A stretch of 5,887 nucleotides of DNA from Escherichia coli (GTDB lineage Bacteria; Pseudomonadota; Gammaproteobacteria; Enterobacterales; Enterobacteriaceae), in the NCBI RefSeq assembly GCF_003334815.1, contig NZ_QOWO01000070.1. One strand, given 5' to 3'. Below, in pieces: positions 1-5,835 of this stretch; within the stretch, counting starts at the first letter, position 1, and each line of letters begins with the position of its first letter. A program made the translations under genes and the position numbers. Under the pieces are notes generated by a model. That model did no database searches. It worked only from the letters and a program-made list of their open reading frames with translations, and was not told the origin of the DNA.

Positions 1-95
1 ATCGACGATTGCTGGAAAGGCTGGGCCATACTCCTCCGGCAGAAGCAGAAAAAGCTTATTATGCTTCCATCGGAAACAATGATCTGGCAGCCTGA
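1..95 (+). CDS. C-terminal 31 codons of IS3-family transposase OrfB (partial; 5' end outside window)
   Basis: Reading from base 3 gives RRLLERLGHTPPAEAEKAYYASIGNNDLAA then TGA at 93..95. This is the same as the C-terminus of the 290-aa ORF at 3770..4642 except for one D to N change. Confidence 0.8.
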   Translation, partial: RRLLERLGHTPPAEAEKAYYASIGNNDLAA

Positions 96-112
96 GTTCA
101 CAGATAAAACAC

Positions 113-137
113 TCTCCAGGAAACCCGGGGCGGTTCA
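113..137. repeat. Terminal inverted repeat (IRR) of IS629-like copy 1, about 25 bp
   Basis: The reverse complement of the terminus, TGAACCGCCCCGGGTTTCCTGGAGA, matches the IRL at 5811 (TGAACCGCCCCGGGAATCCTGGAGA) at 23 of 25 positions. Exact IR length is approximate. Confidence 0.65.
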
Positions 138-145
138 CTTCCCAA

Positions 146-179
146 CCATAATATTTCTGTCATTTCTGCCCCCTATTAT
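146..179 (+). promoter_or_regulatory. Putative promoter of the phytase-like gene: a perfect Pho-box half-site CTGTCAT (157..163), a 10-bp spacer, and a -10-like TATTAT (174..179)
   Basis: CTGTCAT is the 7-bp PhoB half-site consensus, and its spacing to the -10 resembles PhoB-dependent promoters. The distal half-site (146..152, CCATAAT) is weak, and no canonical -35 is present. Confidence 0.25.
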
Positions 180-226
180 GACGTTGTTTTTACTTCTGAG
201 CGATAACAACGAAAAGAGACAATGAC

Positions 227-1570
227 ATGCACAACTCCAAAATCCGACAAGCTGTACTGGTTGGATGCATGACGCTGAGCGCTAACCTGTGGGCCGAAGC
301 GCAGCCGGTGCAGGCAACGCTGGCTGGGCATGCACTGTTGCCAGTAACATCCGCCGTTTCAACTCCGAAGGATGCGCCGAGCGATCTGCAACAGAGCGGC
401 AAATACACCAGCGGCAAACGCGTCACCGAGCTGGGCAGCGTGGCGGGCAAATCCGCAGATCGTCTGACTGGACTCGGCCTGCCGATCAACGGTCAGCCGT
501 TGCAGGGCCACTCAGGTATCAAACACATGCCCGACGGTACCTACTGGGTGCTGACTGACAACGGCTTCGGCAGCAAAGCCAACTCCCCGGACGCCATGTT
601 GTACCTCAACCACTACAAAATCGACTTCAAAGACGGCACGGTAGTACCGCTGAAGACGCTTTTCCTGCATGATCCGGATAAGAAGGTACCGTTCCACATC
701 ATCAACGAGAGTACCGAACAGCGCTATCTGACCGGCAGCGATTTTGATCCCGAAAGCTTCCAGTTTTCCGACAATGCCTTATGGATCGGTGATGAGTTCG
801 GTCCTTACCTGATCAAGACCGACCTGAACGGCAAGGTGCTGGCGGTGTTCGATACTGAAGTGGATGGAAAGGTGATTAAATCGCCGGACAACCCGACGCT
901 GACCCTACCTGGCGCGCCGGACGGCAAGCAGAATTTCCAGGTTGCGCGTTCCAAAGGCTTTGAAGGCATGGCCATCTCGCCGGACGGCAGTAAGCTGTAT
1001 CCGCTGTTGGAAGGGGCATTGTGGGACGGTGAGCAGTTCGAGAACGTTGGCGGAAAACGCTACCTGCGTATGCTGGAGTTCGACGTCAAACAGCAGGTCT
1101 GGACTGGTCGCAGCTGGCAGTACGTGCTGGAAGACAACCAGAACGCCATCGGCGACTTCAATATGATCGATGACACCCACGGGCTGGTGATCGAGCGCGA
1201 CAACGGCGAAGGCACTACGGATAAAGCCTGCGTCGTCGGTGCGCCGACCAACAACTGTTTCAGTCAAGTAGCCAAGTTCAAACGAGTGTATAAAATCGCT
1301 TTCTCGGACACTAACGTCGGTAAACCTGTCGAAAAACTGAGCTATATCGACCTGATGAATATTCAGGATCCGAACAAGCTGGCACGCAAGCCGCTGAGTG
1401 ACGGTGTGCTGACCTTCCCGTTTGTCACCATCGAGAACGTGGATGTGGTTGACGCGAACCACATTATTGTAGGCAACGATAATAACTTCCCGTTTTCCTC
1501 CAGCCGCTGGCCTAATATGGCGGATGACAACGAGTTTATTCTACTTAATGTGAAGAATTTTCTGAAGTAG
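227..1570 (+). CDS. Sec-secreted phytase-like beta-propeller protein (esterase-like activity of phytase type family), 447 aa; function uncharacterised
   Basis: Long ORF with an N-terminal Sec signal peptide (hydrophobic core LVGCMTLSANLWA followed by EAQ) and a weak RBS (AAGAGA) 8 nt upstream. Repeated motifs (DNGFG, GDEFGP, FEGMAISPDG, ERDNGEG, GNDNNFPF) look like the phytase-like fold. The family call is from memory, not a search. Confidence 0.7.
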   Translation: MHNSKIRQAVLVGCMTLSANLWAEAQPVQATLAGHALLPVTSAVSTPKDAPSDLQQSGKYTSGKRVTELGSVAGKSADRLTGLGLPINGQPLQGHSGIKHMPDGTYWVLTDNGFGSKANSPDAMLYLNHYKIDFKDGTVVPLKTLFLHDPDKKVPFHIINESTEQRYLTGSDFDPESFQFSDNALWIGDEFGPYLIKTDLNGKVLAVFDTEVDGKVIKSPDNPTLTLPGAPDGKQNFQVARSKGFEGMAISPDGSKLYPLLEGALWDGEQFENVGGKRYLRMLEFDVKQQVWTGRSWQYVLEDNQNAIGDFNMIDDTHGLVIERDNGEGTTDKACVVGAPTNNCFSQVAKFKRVYKIAFSDTNVGKPVEKLSYIDLMNIQDPNKLARKPLSDGVLTFPFVTIENVDVVDANHIIVGNDNNFPFSSSRWPNMADDNEFILLNVKNFLK

Positions 1571-1792
1571 GGGGGAGATCATCTCATCGCTTACCTTAAA
1601 ACTATCATAAGGGTTTACTTCCCTTCAGCGGCGCACAAGGCGCAGGCTTCTGGCTTTCAGTCTTATCCAGGAGGAACATACTGAAAGGCCTGAGTAAACA
1701 TGAATAAAAGGAATATTATATAACAGATGATTCTAAACCACGCGACAAAGCGTTGAAGGAAGCCTGCGCGCAGCATGACGGGGCTTTACCAT

Positions 1793-1826
1793 AAAAAAAC
1801 GCAGGCTAACCGCGCCTGCGTTTTTT
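1793..1826. terminator. Bidirectional rho-independent terminator shared by the convergent phytase-like gene and phoX
   Basis: A perfect 8-bp GC-rich stem (ACGCAGGC at 1799..1806 pairing with GCCTGCGT at 1814..1821) with a 7-nt loop, flanked by an A7 run (1793..1799) and a T6 run (1821..1826). It lies 20 bp downstream of the phoX stop. Confidence 0.8.
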
Positions 1827-1845
1827 ATGACGGATGAAGCAGAAA

Positions 1846-3825
1846 TCAGGTGCCGATCATACCGCCGTCGGCTTTCACGATAACGACGGTTGAGGAACGC
1901 GGACGACTGGCCTTATCGCCGTCGGGCCAGCTTGATACTGCCGTCGGATGCTGCGGATCGCTCAGCCCTTCGGCTGGCTCGCCAGGGTGCTGGATGTTAA
2001 TAAACAGCGTCCGGTTATCCGGCGTGAACGCGATGCCGGTGATTTCGCAGCCACGCGGGCCGGTCAGGAAGCGGCGAAACTCGTTGGTACCGGGGATCGT
2101 CGCCACCATCTGGTTGTTGCCCATGCCTTCGTAATCTTTACGGTTGATGGTTGATGACGACACGTCGGTCTGGATCCACAGCACGCCGCGGTGATCGAAG
2201 CTCAGGCCGTCGGCGCTGCCGAATTCCGCGCCCTTCATGCTACCTTTGGCTTCCGGTTTGTCAGTATCGGTGCGACCGCCCATCACCAGAATATCCCAGG
2301 CGAACTGCAGCGCGGTCGGGTCGCCGTTCTGCTCCAGCCAGTGAATGATGTGACCGTAAACGTTTTTGCCGCGCGGGTTGGCCGCATCCACCGGCGCTTT
2401 GCCTTCCTTACCGCGATCGCTGTTGTTGGTGAGCGTGCAGTAAACGCTGCCTGTGTGGTATGGATCAACCGCAATCCACTCCGGGCGGTCCATTTTGGTG
2501 GCGCCCACGGCGTCTGCCGCCAGACGGGTTTTAATCAGCAGGTCGCCCTGGTTTTCAAAGCCTTTGCTGGCGTCAAGCCCGTTTTGGCCGAACACCAGCG
2601 GTAGCCACTCGCCTTTGCCGTCATCGTTAAATTTCGCCACATACAGCGTGCCTTTCTCCAGCAGGCGCATGTTGGCTTTGCGATCCCGCGGGTTGAATTT
2701 GCCTTCCGAGACAAATTTATAGATGTATTCGAATTTCTGGTCATCGCCCATATAAACCACAACGCGGTTATCCGGGGCGAGCGTCACCGCCGCGCCTTCG
2801 TGCTTGATGCGGCCAAGCGCGGTGTGCTTGCGCGGCACTGAATGCGGATCGTATGGATCGATTTCCACCACCCAGCCGAAGCGGTTCGGCTCGTTCGGCG
2901 TGACGTCAACGCTGAAACGCTTATCCACTTCGTTCCAGCGGTAAGAGCCGTCGCTGTCGCTGATGCCGTAACGTTTTTCCAGCGGGTTCATCTCCGCTTT
3001 TTTCACGAAAATATCGGACCAGTTCTCTTCGCACGTCAGATAGGTGCCCCACGGCGTAAAACCGTTGGCGCAGTTCTGCATGGTGCCGAGAATGGTTTCG
3101 CCTTTCGGATCGTCAGCCGTTTGCATCAGCGGGTTATGCAGCGCCGGGCCGGTGATTTTCATCGGCGTGTTAACGGTGATGCGGCGCGCGAAAGATGACG
3201 GGCGCACCACTTCCCAGCCCTGGGCCGCTTTTTTTACTTCAATGACCGACACGCCCATTGCGTTCTGTCCTTTCAGCGCTTTATCAGCGCTCCAGTTGGC
3301 ATCGCCATCTTTAAACAGCAGACCGTTATCGATGTATTCATGGTTCATGGCGAGCAGGCCGTGATCGACGCTGTGCCCGCCCTGCGGCAGGCTAAACCAC
3401 GCCATACCGTCGTGGTGCATCCCGGCCTGCGCCGCCTGCTCTTCCGTGGTGTTGCTGCCGTCGGTTTTAAAAACCGGCTGATTCCCGGCAAGCCCGGTGG
3501 CGTCGCCCCATTTGTATAAGGGCTTCGCGATGTAGCCTTCCGGCACGATAACGGTATCTTCCGTGGAAACCGGCAGACTGGTGAAACCGAGCGCCGTCGC
3601 TTTGCCGAGGTTACCGCTTACGCTGGAGACCGCTTTCGCCAGCGCGTTTTCCGGTTTCAGCAGAAACGGGAACGTTGCCGCGGCACCGGCGACCGCGCCT
3701 GTCTGTAACAGGCGGCGGCGCGACAAATAGACTTCCGCCACCTGCGAAAACGCGCGGTTATCACTCGGGTTGCTGGTCTCTTCACTATGCTCACGTTTGA
3801 ATAAAGTTTTTAACGATCTGCCCAT
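1846..3825 (-). CDS. phoX: PhoX-family alkaline phosphatase/phosphodiesterase, Tat-exported, 659 aa
   Basis: N-terminal twin-arginine motif LSRRRLLQTGAVAGAAATFPFL followed by an AxA-type cleavage region (ALAKA). Size and beta-propeller-like composition are typical of PhoX, including a WGTYLTCEENW motif. An RBS (AAGGAAA) lies about 8 nt upstream of the ATG at 3825. Confidence 0.8.
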   Translation of the reverse strand: MGRSLKTLFKREHSEETSNPSDNRAFSQVAEVYLSRRRLLQTGAVAGAAATFPFLLKPENALAKAVSSVSGNLGKATALGFTSLPVSTEDTVIVPEGYIAKPLYKWGDATGLAGNQPVFKTDGSNTTEEQAAQAGMHHDGMAWFSLPQGGHSVDHGLLAMNHEYIDNGLLFKDGDANWSADKALKGQNAMGVSVIEVKKAAQGWEVVRPSSFARRITVNTPMKITGPALHNPLMQTADDPKGETILGTMQNCANGFTPWGTYLTCEENWSDIFVKKAEMNPLEKRYGISDSDGSYRWNEVDKRFSVDVTPNEPNRFGWVVEIDPYDPHSVPRKHTALGRIKHEGAAVTLAPDNRVVVYMGDDQKFEYIYKFVSEGKFNPRDRKANMRLLEKGTLYVAKFNDDGKGEWLPLVFGQNGLDASKGFENQGDLLIKTRLAADAVGATKMDRPEWIAVDPYHTGSVYCTLTNNSDRGKEGKAPVDAANPRGKNVYGHIIHWLEQNGDPTALQFAWDILVMGGRTDTDKPEAKGSMKGAEFGSADGLSFDHRGVLWIQTDVSSSTINRKDYEGMGNNQMVATIPGTNEFRRFLTGPRGCEITGIAFTPDNRTLFINIQHPGEPAEGLSDPQHPTAVSSWPDGDKASRPRSSTVVIVKADGGMIGT

Positions 3826-4642
3826 TGCGGTTTCCTTTCAAAAAATCGATTTCAAGGGGAATCATTTTTATGCACGTGAGTCTACGGAAAGTATGTTACA
3901 GAAATATAATGAGATACAGCGCGTATACGATGAAAATCATCAGGTGTACGGTGTGCGTAAAGTCTGGCATCAGTTGTTACGGGAAGGAATCAGGGTGGCC
4001 AGATGTACAGTGGCGCGCCTCATGGCGGTTATGGAACTTGCCGGTGTTCTCCGGGGTAAAAAGGTCCGCACAACCGTCAGCCGGAAAGCCGTTGCCGCAG
4101 GCGACCGCGTAAACCGTCAGTTCGTGGCAGAACGTCCAGACCTGTTGTGGGTGGCTGATTTTACTTACGTCAGCACATGGCAGGGCTTTGTTTATGTGGC
4201 GTTCATCATTGATGTGTTTGCCGGATACATCGTGGGATGGCAGGTCTCATCGTCCATGGAAACGACATTCGTGCTGGATGCACTGGAGCAGGCGTTGTGG
4301 GCCCGTCGGCCGTCCGGCACAATTCATCACAGCGATAAAGGCACTCAGTATGTATCGCTGGCCTACACGCAGCGGCTTAAGGAAGCCGGATTACTGGCAT
4401 CAACAGGAAGTACTGGTGACTCGTATGACAACGCGATGGCGGAGAGCATCAATGGTCTTTACAAGGCGGAGGTAATACACCGTAAGAGCTGGAAAAACCG
4501 GACAGAAGTGGAGCAGGCCACACTCACGTGGGTGGACTGGTATAACAATCGACGATTGCTGGAAAGGCTGGGCCATACTCCCCCGGCAGAAGCAGAAAAA
4601 GCTTATTATGCTTCTATCGGAAACGATGATCTGGCAGCCTGA
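3770..4642 (+). CDS. IS3-family transposase OrfB (DDE integrase core), 5'-truncated fragment; the first 45 or so codons of this ORF are not IS-derived, so it is probably non-functional
   Basis: DDE-type motifs are present (WVADFTYV, HHSDKGTQYVS, AESINGLYKAEV) and the C-terminus LERLGHTPPAEAEKAYY is typical of IS3-family OrfB. There is no upstream orfA or frameshift window, and the ORF's 5' end overlaps the phoX start on the other strand. Confidence 0.8.
   Translation: MLVSSLCSRLNKVFNDLPIAVSFQKIDFKGNHFYARESTESMLQKYNEIQRVYDENHQVYGVRKVWHQLLREGIRVARCTVARLMAVMELAGVLRGKKVRTTVSRKAVAAGDRVNRQFVAERPDLLWVADFTYVSTWQGFVYVAFIIDVFAGYIVGWQVSSSMETTFVLDALEQALWARRPSGTIHHSDKGTQYVSLAYTQRLKEAGLLASTGSTGDSYDNAMAESINGLYKAEVIHRKSWKNRTEVEQATLTWVDWYNNRRLLERLGHTPPAEAEKAYYASIGNDDLAA
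3864..3901 (-). promoter_or_regulatory. Candidate phoX promoter: -10-like ATAAAAAT with a weak Pho-box-like CTGTAACATACTTTCCGT about 12 bp upstream (on the phoX-sense strand)
   Basis: Position and spacing relative to the phoX ATG are plausible. The proximal half-site matches the consensus poorly. The site lies at the junction with the truncated IS copy. Confidence 0.2.
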
Positions 4643-4684
4643 GTTCACAGATAAAACACTCTCCAGGAAACCCGGGGCGGTTCA
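3905..4684 (+). mobile_element. 5'-truncated IS3-family (IS629/IS1203-like) copy 2: the 3' roughly 60 percent of the element, with IRR but no IRL and no orfA
   Basis: Recognisable OrfB sequence starts around EIQRVYDENHQVYGVRKVW (about 3911) and runs to the terminus ...CGGTTCA at 4684. Upstream of about 3905 the DNA is the phoX 5' region. The left boundary is approximate, give or take about 15 bp. Confidence 0.8.
4660..4684. repeat. Terminal inverted repeat (IRR) of IS629-like copy 2
   Basis: Same terminus as 113..137. Similarity to 1..137 ends exactly after TTCA at 4684. Confidence 0.65.
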
Positions 4685-4705
4685 CAATTTTCTTCAACTG
4701 CAGGA

Positions 4706-4735
4706 CCTGACGGAAAACAAGTGATTTCCGTCAGG
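4706..4735. repeat. Perfect 11-bp inverted repeat (hairpin) CCTGACGGAAA / TTTCCGTCAGG with an 8-nt loop, 21 bp outside the IS629-like right end
   Basis: The two arms are exact reverse complements, read directly from the sequence. No U-run follows on either strand, so it is not a canonical intrinsic terminator. Confidence 0.6.
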
Positions 4736-4951
4736 GAGAAATCGCTTAGCGGGTGTTATCGCAGAAATTCCCACGGAGCCCCATCAACGCCAACCGGTGT
4801 ATATTTCATTTGTGGAGTCTCCAGTCTGAGGGAGCTTTATGCATCCCGTATTGGGCACTATGATGCCGGAAATCTGCGAGGCTCCACACCTGCCAGTTTC
4901 ACCCTTTTAACCATCATACTGCTCCGTGTTTAATTGTGTGGGATGCGTTCA

Positions 4952-5122
4952 TTACATTTTCACCATTTTGCCACTGCGGCCCCGGAAGACGAAGATATGC
5001 CCGGAGAACGGGTCATCTTTCAGCGTGTTCTGCACCTTCGAAGCTAGGCCGTTGAAGCCACAACGCATATCTGTGATGCCAGCGATGATCCAGATTCTGG
5101 TACCGGTCGGCAGCGTTATCAT
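4952..5122 (-). CDS. tnpB: IS66-family TnpB (orf2), truncated: 56 aa where about 115 aa is expected
   Basis: My own translation of the minus strand gives MITLPTGTRIWIIAGITDMRCGFNGLASKVQNTLKDDPFSGHIFVFRGRSGKMVKM then a stop, carrying the IS66 TnpB hallmarks (TDMR.GF.GL, DPFSGH.FVFRGR). Its ATG overlaps the upstream ORF's TGA as ATGA, the usual IS66 orf1/orf2 coupling. No frame continues the TnpB sequence beyond 4952. Confidence 0.7.
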   Translation of the reverse strand: MITLPTGTRIWIIAGITDMRCGFNGLASKVQNTLKDDPFSGHIFVFRGRSGKMVKM

Positions 5123-5796
5123 CGGATCCCCCCTTTCATTTCGCGAATGAGCACCCTAAGAAGTTCCGGAGTGAGAGGGGCAAACAGTTTTACCACACCT
5201 GATTTAAGATGCAGCTCACACTGTGGTGAGTCTACGGTAGTGTCACTCTGGCTTTCATCAGACTTATTTCGCCAGAAAGGATTTGTCACCGGTTTGACGG
5301 GGTCAGGAGTCTCAGTGATTGCCACCGGAACGGCCTGGCATTCCTGGAGATCCTCATCATTCAGCAAGCCCTCTTCATACAGTCTTTTCCAGTTAAACAA
5401 CAGATTGTCATTAATATTGTGCTCTCTGGCGATCCGTGCAACGACTGCACCAGGCTGTAATGCCTGTTTTACCAGCCTGATTTTAAATTCACGACTGTAG
5501 GAGGTTCGTCGTTCTTTTCGCCATGTGCTTTCGCTGATTTGAGGATCATCAGGTAATTCCTTCTTTCTGTTGGCATAAAGTATGGCATCGAGTTGGGCGA
5601 CTGAAAGTGATTCAGGTAATGGCCAGGTAATACCGGAGGCATTAAATCGTTGAAAGAGATTATGAATGGTGGAATGACTGAGACCTAACTGCAGGGCGAT
5701 AGCCCGGACAGATAATTGCTCGTCGAATCTTAGACGTAATGCGTCTGGCAAATAAGAGCGAAAGCCGGTGATATCTTTTGCTGTCTGAGAATTCAT
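5119..5796 (-). CDS. tnpA: IS66-family TnpA (orf1)-like HTH protein (C-terminal 130 aa or so) with an N-terminal 90 aa or so resembling an IS21-family IstA HTH; a possible in-frame chimera
   Basis: The C-terminal part (RRTSYSREFKIRLVKQALQPGAVVARIAREHNINDNLLFNWKRLYEEG ... ELHLKSGVVKLFAPLTPELLRVLIREMK) has the IS66 orf1 HTH and C-terminal pattern and is translationally coupled to tnpB. The N-terminal part (LSVRAIALQLGLSHSTIHNLFQRFNASGITWPLPESLSVAQLDAILY) resembles the IstA N-terminus with its WPLP motif. Both calls are from memory. Confidence 0.6.
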   Translation of the reverse strand: MNSQTAKDITGFRSYLPDALRLRFDEQLSVRAIALQLGLSHSTIHNLFQRFNASGITWPLPESLSVAQLDAILYANRKKELPDDPQISESTWRKERRTSYSREFKIRLVKQALQPGAVVARIAREHNINDNLLFNWKRLYEEGLLNDEDLQECQAVPVAITETPDPVKPVTNPFWRNKSDESQSDTTVDSPQCELHLKSGVVKLFAPLTPELLRVLIREMKGGIR

Positions 5797-5810
5797 CGTT
5801 CGTGTCCATC

Positions 5811-5835
5811 TGAACCGCCCCGGGAATCCTGGAGA
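5811..5835. repeat. Terminal inverted repeat (IRL) of IS629-like copy 3
   Basis: Matches the reverse complement of the right-end termini at 23 of 25 positions. Confidence 0.7.

Follow-up and report, generated by a model that had tools for sequence, protein, structure and literature searches.

An ISEc11 start and a Tn3-family transposon end with a candidate resolvase site next to an interrupted IS66-family tnpB gene of Escherichia coli

Mobile-element fragments at the locus

The DNA analysed here (the window) is a stretch of 5,887 nucleotides from E. coli contig NZ_QOWO01000070.1 (assembly GCF_003334815.1). Two IS629-like right ends lie in it in direct orientation (positions 1-165 and approximately 3870-4684) and bracket two genes, one for a phytase-like esterase (227-1570) and one for a PhoX family protein (1846-3825, minus strand). 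This module resembles a composite transposon and is found on several E. coli plasmids with 99-100% identity. Between the two convergent genes is a perfect 13-bp stem (AAAAAACGCAGGC...GCCTGCGTTTTTT, 1794-1826) with A-runs and T-runs on both sides, which looks like an ordinary bidirectional intrinsic terminator; the window's only two Rfam hits, weak and sub-threshold matches to STnc50 and sroD, fall on this terminator (approximately 1790-1830).

The second IS3-family (IS629-like) sequence is the 3' part of an element on the plus strand (3870-4684, the left limit being approximate) and comprises an orfB fragment and the right terminal repeat. PGAP annotates an "IS3 family transposase, missing N-terminus" in plasmid pJNE25-005_2 at the equivalent of window positions 3911-4642. 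The right end (...GGGGCGGTTCA) stops at 4684, where two relatives with other flanks also lose their match; this is the base at which a first-pass annotation of the sequence had ended the IS629-like similarity. The right part of the window contains two IS66-family genes on the minus strand: tnpA (5119-5796), which encodes 225 amino acids (aa), and the 5' part of tnpB (4960-5122; codons 1-55). IS66-family sequence ends at 5810, 14 bp upstream of the tnpA start, and an IS629-like left end (TGAACCGCCCCGGG...) begins there (window 5797-5811). Unrelated plasmids drop in homology exactly at 5810; this position may mark a genuine left end, unusually short, of the IS66-family element and not a truncation.

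The segment between the IS3- and IS66-family sequences had been described as an unassigned unit of 267 bp (4685-4951), neither IS629-like nor IS66-derived. The second part of this description is correct, as the matches are to a Tn3-family transposon end and to ISEc11. A megablast search with 4685-4951 against 5,426 complete E. coli genomes and 72,556 plasmids returned dozens of 100% matches, all confined to 4783-4951, and no full-length match. The two homologies meet at 4782/4783 without gap or overlap. Because two independent homologies abut exactly at this point, the reading of the segment as a single unknown element is rejected, and the palindrome within it belongs to a fourth element rather than to the one that cuts IS66. 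From these comparisons the segment is very probably transposon debris, a Tn3-family end abutting the start of ISEc11, with no new feature. Elsewhere each half is essentially ordinary non-coding DNA beside an intact gene, as the leader 5' of the ISEc11 transposase gene in one case and, in intact Tn3-family copies, as the interval from the terminal repeat to tnpR in the other; this is the kind of match that the first-pass annotation had itself taken to speak against its proposal. An open reading frame of 70 aa (4721-4933) runs across the junction and has no recorded counterpart; a protein-coding reading was therefore rejected as spurious.

ISEc11 is placed in the IS1111 family, within the IS110 group of ISfinder, and was reportedly the subject of an earlier study by Prosseda et al. 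in 2006. Positions 4783-4959 (minus strand) are ISEc11 bp 1-177, from the left end through the 5' non-coding region to codon nine of the transposase gene. The reference was the full copy on plasmid 55989p (locus L006), annotated "IS110-like element ISEc11 family transposase", to which the window is identical at 177 of 177 positions; the same annotation is given in the dozens of records that match 4783-4951 at 100%. No further ISEc11 sequence is found in the window by comparison with the full copy, and 12% of the element remains. In the 55989p copy, tnp spans bp 151-1170 and encodes 339 aa; this length agrees with Siddiquee et al. (2024; PMC11187229), as does the end of the gene, since their 3' non-coding region begins at that coordinate. 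In the window, the DEDD transposase gene has its ATG at ISEc11 bp 151 and reads MKYTPVGVD (4783-4809, minus strand) before the Tn3-family terminal repeat cuts the element at 4782/4783, leaving 330 codons missing.

The IS1111 family is defined by sub-terminal inverted repeats of 11-13 bp (PMC11187229), with a left extension of 6-7 bp. The left repeat is present in the window (ATGAACGCATCCC, 13 bp, 4940-4952, minus strand), 7 bp from the end of the element and preceded by the terminal extension AAATGTA (4953-4959, minus strand; boundary convention from PMC11187229). Its partner, GGGATGCGTTCAT, is found at the right end of the full 55989p copy and is absent from the window, as are the right end itself and the 3' non-coding region that encodes the seekRNA. 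ISEc11 requires this seekRNA, which pairs with both target strands, and inserts at GTGAAAATACTG via a circular intermediate (PMC11187229). Sequences matching the two target strands are found in the 3' non-coding region of the 55989p copy (CAGTATTTT at bp 1284 and GTGAAAATA at bp 1309). A bridge RNA or seekRNA inside the window fragment was considered and rejected: the IS1111-type guide RNA sits at bp 1170-1442, none of which lies in the window. A simple sigma-70 scan of the reconstructed right-end/left-end junction did not recover the published circle-junction promoter. With only nine transposase codons left and the seekRNA region gone, 4783-4959 is a fragment of an ISEc11 member and not a functional member.

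The tnpB flank beside the ISEc11 end reads ...GGTGA(AAAT) and corresponds to GTGAAAAT (4956-4963, minus strand), the left half of the published 12-bp target. The insertion is at GTGAAAATACTG without added bases, with the left flank GTGA(AAAT) at 4956-4963 and the right flank outside the window. When the two flanks of the 55989p copy are joined (...GGTGAAAATACTGTGG...), the product matches the uninterrupted IS66-family tnpB of many E. coli plasmids at 206 of 206 positions. The window is homologous to intact IS66 tnpB down to 4956 and to ISEc11 up to 4959; the AAAT at 4956-4959 (minus strand) is common to ISEc11 and the uninterrupted target, and the junction is ambiguous by these 4 bp. Earlier work took the same overlap as a target duplication (PMC11187229). 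The first-pass annotation had placed the IS66 truncation at 4952, past which no frame continued tnpB. The frame does stop at 4952-4954, but its TAA codon is ISEc11 sequence (4953-4954 from the extension, 4952 from the sub-terminal repeat), so the true junction is at 4955-4959. The range outside IS629-like and IS66-family DNA is accordingly about 4685-4955/4959 rather than 4685-4951, because tnpB homology reaches 4956 and ISEc11 homology 4959. The suggestion that the terminus of a third, unrecognized element had cut IS66 holds for 4783-4959, except that the element is the well-known ISEc11.

Insertion of ISEc11 changes the tnpB product from ...GKMVKILWADRDG... to ...GKMVKM-stop, giving a protein of 56 aa. 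The assembly collection contains this truncated TnpB in 1,144 blocks; all eight loci shown have ISEc11 transposase sequence, either the gene or a fragment, after it, and at four of these the IS66 tnpC gene comes next. The uninterrupted target region was found in 760 E. coli records (at least 80% coverage) and the occupied ISEc11/tnpB junction in 29. The location of GTGAAAATACTG inside an IS66-family tnpB gene (window 4956-4967; positions 2720-4180 of the 55989p locus) is a case of one IS guided into another, and IS66 is not mentioned in PMC11187229. The E. coli 536 chromosome (locus L001, 1635-2840) contains an independent decay product of the same arrangement, in which IS66 tnpA and a truncated tnpB are followed by a 150-bp fragment of the ISEc11 transposase gene that is cut by a different IS3-family integrase-core fragment.

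The remainder of the segment, 4685-4782 (minus strand), is the terminal 98 bp of a Tn3-family transposon, comprising its terminal repeat and the outer edge of res. The terminal inverted repeat is 38 bp in length (GGGGCTCCGTGGGAATTTCTGCGATAACACCCGCTAAG, 4745-4782, minus strand), with its outer end at 4782. A sensitive search with 4685-4790 found matches of 97-98% identity in many plasmids, with annotation that varied on one side only. At three loci, DNA 87 bp upstream of a resolvase gene is 97-98% identical to 4685-4787, and the resolvase gene is followed by a Tn3-family transposase gene or fragment. Five different outer flanks diverge right after ...CACGGA(G/A)CCCC.

An intact copy of the element is present on plasmid pCP52E-IncFIB (locus L007, 371-4158). 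It is 3,788 bp in length, has no passenger genes, and is arranged as terminal repeat, res, tnpR, tnpA and terminal repeat, with tnpA encoding a Tn3-family transposase of 988 aa. The terminal repeat of the window is found at 371-408 with one mismatch, and its inverted partner at 4121-4158 matches at 35 of 38 positions (three mismatches) and overlaps the 3' end of the transposase gene. The repeats are thus approximately 38 bp long, start with GGGG, end in ...TAAG (CGCTAAG) and flank tnpR and the transposase gene in inverted orientation. In intact copies, tnpR begins 146 bp inward from the terminal repeat; its product (WP_000904945.1) is a small serine recombinase of 207 aa, which matches Gin with an E-value of 6e-50 and gamma-delta resolvase with 5e-26 (about 1e-24 to 5e-26 across the gamma-delta/Tn3 resolvases). 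The tnpR and tnpA genes and the accessory res sites are all absent from the window, where the IS3-family element cuts the Tn3-family end at 4684/4685, inside what is the terminal repeat-tnpR region of intact copies. No Tn or IS name for this element was found in PGAP, UniRef or the literature searched; its tnpA and tnpR clusters carry only generic names, and a full-text literature search with the terminal repeat and hairpin sequences gave no match.

The 5-bp flanks of the pCP52E-IncFIB copy differ (TTGTT versus GGTAC) and there is no 5-bp target duplication; the window holds only one end. This intact copy (366-375 and 4154-4165) is flanked by two fragments of an ISEc8-like IS66 transposase gene. 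The mismatched flanks and the IS66 fragments suggest recombination between copies after insertion.

The palindrome and its place in the transposon

The Tn3-family end contains the palindrome CCTGACGGAAA-8 nt-TTTCCGTCAGG (4706-4735), which we propose as the site at which the transposon's serine resolvase would carry out crossover (res site I). Its arms (4706-4716 and 4725-4735) are perfectly complementary and 8 nt apart, exactly as first described. If one mismatch is allowed, each arm lengthens inwards to 14 nt, leaving 2 nt at the centre, and the 26-bp core (4708-4733) forms a 12+2+12 dyad, TGACGGAAAACA-AG-TGATTTCCGTCA, in which 11 of 12 positions are symmetric. First-order Markov simulations produced a perfect inverted repeat of 11 bp with a loop of 0-20 nt in 1 of 3,000 runs for the 267-bp segment and in 11 of 300 for the whole window. 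Such rarity speaks against a chance origin, and the hairpin is genuine.

In intact copies, 10 bp separate the palindrome from the terminal repeat on its outer side and 108 bp from the start of tnpR downstream; of the symmetric sites it is the farthest from tnpR. On pCP52E-IncFIB the dyad is at 420-445, motifs resembling half-sites are at 503-513 and 520-530, and the tnpR ATG is at 555. The arm-like motifs between the dyad and tnpR in intact copies are CCTGTCGGAAT and CTGTACGGAAA; by eye, TTTGCGTGACA is also arm-like, as is GTTTGTCGTACA, which overlaps the ATG. In the window, a possible further resolvase half-site, TGAAGAAAAT (4687-4696, minus strand), is tentatively the last res motif before the IS3-family breakpoint; its GAAA(A/T) is conserved in seven of seven aligned sequences, and by eye it resembles the half-site TGACGGAAA.

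A 12+2+12 geometry is typical of serine-recombinase crossover sites (res site I, gix and hix). In Tn3-family elements with a co-linear res-tnpR-tnpA arrangement, site I occupies the position farthest from tnpR; a resolvase dimer binds it and cuts at the central dinucleotide, resolving cointegrates. The palindrome has the corresponding geometry (a dyad of approximately 26-30 bp with a 2-bp centre, within res and distal to tnpR).

Diverged relatives of the element occur on plasmids of Serratia, Pantoea, Rhizobium and Roseateles. Both 10-bp arms are identical to those of the E. coli element at 10 of 10 positions in Serratia and Pantoea, with 6/8 in the 8-bp centre, and identity in the adjacent stretches (409-418 and 447-485) ranges from 5/10 to 30/39 (50-77%). 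No compensatory substitutions were found in the arms of these relatives. Arms that are conserved but do not covary are what a dyad bound by protein, rather than an RNA stem, would be expected to show, and we read the hairpin as a protein-binding site in double-stranded DNA and not as an RNA structure. In Rhizobium and Roseateles the right arm is conserved at only 6 of 10 positions. In a widespread variant of the p13P477T type, the dyad is largely deleted and the tnpR-proximal motifs are kept. The dyad is thus dispensable for the persistence of at least some remnants, being degraded or deleted in Rhizobium, Roseateles and the p13P477T-type variant. The copy on E. coli plasmid p13P477T-7 (locus L011, 1495-1720) shows 84.5% identity across its terminal repeat and res; in variants of this type, which are found on plasmids of Salmonella, E. 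coli, Klebsiella and Citrobacter, the dyad is reduced to CTGAAAGAAATCTTCAG, the tnpR-proximal motifs match at 67 of 70 positions, and no intact tnpR is annotated adjacent to them.

From its position, symmetry and conservation, the hairpin is likely to be a res subsite bound by the resolvase, and it is probably site I specifically. Among the options raised in the first-pass annotation, a recombination site is therefore the one that best fits the hairpin. The same properties must be weighed against a role in the Tn3-family element other than crossover, such as an accessory resolvase site, an operator, or a host-factor site that modulates binding of the transposase. In favour of such a role, the dyad starts only 10 bp inside the terminal repeat; three clean dyads cannot be assembled from the other res half-sites, so that the res layout is provisional; and the dyad is degraded in Rhizobium, Roseateles and the p13P477T-type variant, whereas the tnpR-proximal sites are conserved at 57-67 of 70 positions. 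Such a role is nevertheless unlikely, given that the dyad is the most symmetric site, has a 2-bp centre and is the farthest from tnpR, and that its arm TGACGGAAA resembles the other motifs upstream of tnpR. A function as RNA (terminator, attenuator or small structured RNA) has a basis in the stability of the stem, which folds on either strand at -18.4 and -18.7 kcal/mol (z about -3.3 and -3.7), and minus-strand transcripts of IS66 tnpA, the truncated tnpB and the ISEc11 leader could extend into it. This function is very hard to reconcile with the remaining data: no T-run follows the hairpin (in line with the first description, which noted no flanking U-run), the terminator scan makes no call, and a whole-window scan at E ≤ 1 gives no Rfam match in 4685-4959. 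Relatives keep the sequence of the arms rather than compensated pairing, while the loop varies, and in intact elements the hairpin lies upstream of tnpR beside the terminal repeat and not at the end of a gene. The hairpin therefore lacks the U-run, Rfam family and covariation of a terminator or structured RNA, and the earlier option of an orphan structured RNA is abandoned in favour of a predicted resolvase site.

Order of events and the 4782/4783 junction

The nesting of the fragments suggests the following order. ISEc11 would have inserted into the IS66-family tnpB gene at its seekRNA-specified 12-bp site, GTGAAAATACTG, after which the 3.8-kb Tn3-family transposon would have entered codon 9-10 of the ISEc11 transposase gene. 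An IS3-family (IS629-like) element would then have broken the transposon in res at 4684/4685, leaving the outer 98 bp, and a later rearrangement would have removed the remainder of the transposon. We infer transposition into ISEc11 from the form of the junction: the terminal repeat is complete and the break falls exactly at its outermost base, as is characteristic of a transposition end. If this is correct, the target would have been TTGAT (ISEc11 bp 173-177), and the other terminal repeat would have been placed beside TTGAT-ATCGCAAAAC....

The exact junction between the Tn3-family repeat and ISEc11 was not found elsewhere in the 5,426 E. coli genomes, the 72,556 plasmids, or 100,044 species-representative genomes (the last searched by exact-match scan). 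With a single record of the 4782/4783 junction, the order of events is provisional, and an origin by illegitimate recombination, deletion or assembly chimera has to be considered. Besides the uniqueness of the junction among the genomes and plasmids searched, plasmid pJNE25-005_2 is 100% identical to window positions 1-4782 and then diverges into pemI, which places the same 98-bp fragment with its IS3-family end in a second context, and the 98-bp fragment could not have transposed alone. The 38-bp repeat is, however, complete and the break coincides with its outer limit, unlike random breakage, and the flank TTGAT|ATCGC is a plausible A+T-rich target of the Tn3 type, so that a non-transpositional origin seems decidedly improbable to us.

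An IS5075-like scenario, in which ISEc11 targeted the Tn3 terminal repeat, was also rejected, because no part of the repeat is missing and it borders an internal position of ISEc11. A complete repeat at ISEc11 bp 177, together with the ISEc11 target in IS66 tnpB, implies that the transposon end entered ISEc11 and not the reverse.

Both relics are most likely inert, because the trans-acting functions, the second ends, the seekRNA and the accessory res sites are all absent. There is only a slim chance that the orphan terminal repeat and site I are still acted on in trans by the transposase or resolvase of intact copies, through one-ended transposition or recombination at site I. Such activity, if real, would explain how the 98-bp fragment and its IS3-family end came to be joined to pemI in pJNE25-005_2 and to ISEc11 bp 177 here, and would make relics of this kind active drivers of plasmid mosaicism. 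An isolated site I is not known to be a substrate for the Tn3 and gamma-delta resolvases.

Comparison with known elements

All components of the locus are of kinds already known, and current understanding is not challenged by them. For annotation, the analysis fills a gap in plasmid DNA rich in IS elements and corrects the ISEc11/IS66 junction to 4955-4959, and the locus provides a clean case of four nested mobile elements (an IS66-family element, ISEc11, a Tn3-family transposon and an IS3-family element). The loose ends concern the transposon, which has no name and whose res site is predicted only. This 3.8-kb element is widespread on E. coli plasmids, and its candidate crossover site is now pointed out.

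The window fragment shares with ISEc11 its sequence (177/177), the 13-bp sub-terminal repeat, the published target and the usual orientation. In contrast to ISEc11, it would be unable to excise, to form the circle-junction promoter or to guide insertion, because the seekRNA region and the right end are absent and the transposase gene is cut after codon 9. IS4321 and IS5075 are IS1111-family elements that target the terminal repeats of Tn21-family transposons (Partridge & Hall 2003, cited in PMC11187229), and here too an IS1111-family element adjoins a Tn3-family 38-bp terminal repeat. The relationship is reversed: IS4321 and IS5075 occupy a fixed position inside the repeat, whereas here the complete repeat abuts internal bp 177 of ISEc11.

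The unnamed element shares the 38-bp GGGG...ACGCTAAG repeat and the co-linear res-tnpR-tnpA order with the Tn3-family layout of Tn21, Tn501 and Tn163-like transposons. Its resolvase is nearer in sequence to the Gin invertase than to the gamma-delta/Tn3 resolvases, and of the intact element the window keeps the outer 98 bp only. The predicted crossover site resembles res site I, gix and hix in its inverted 12-bp arms, its 2-bp centre, its location upstream of its own recombinase gene and the conservation of its arms among relatives. It differs from them in that the dyad centre is AG/CT and not a palindromic AT/TA, and that the accessory sites which a resolvase needs are missing from the window.
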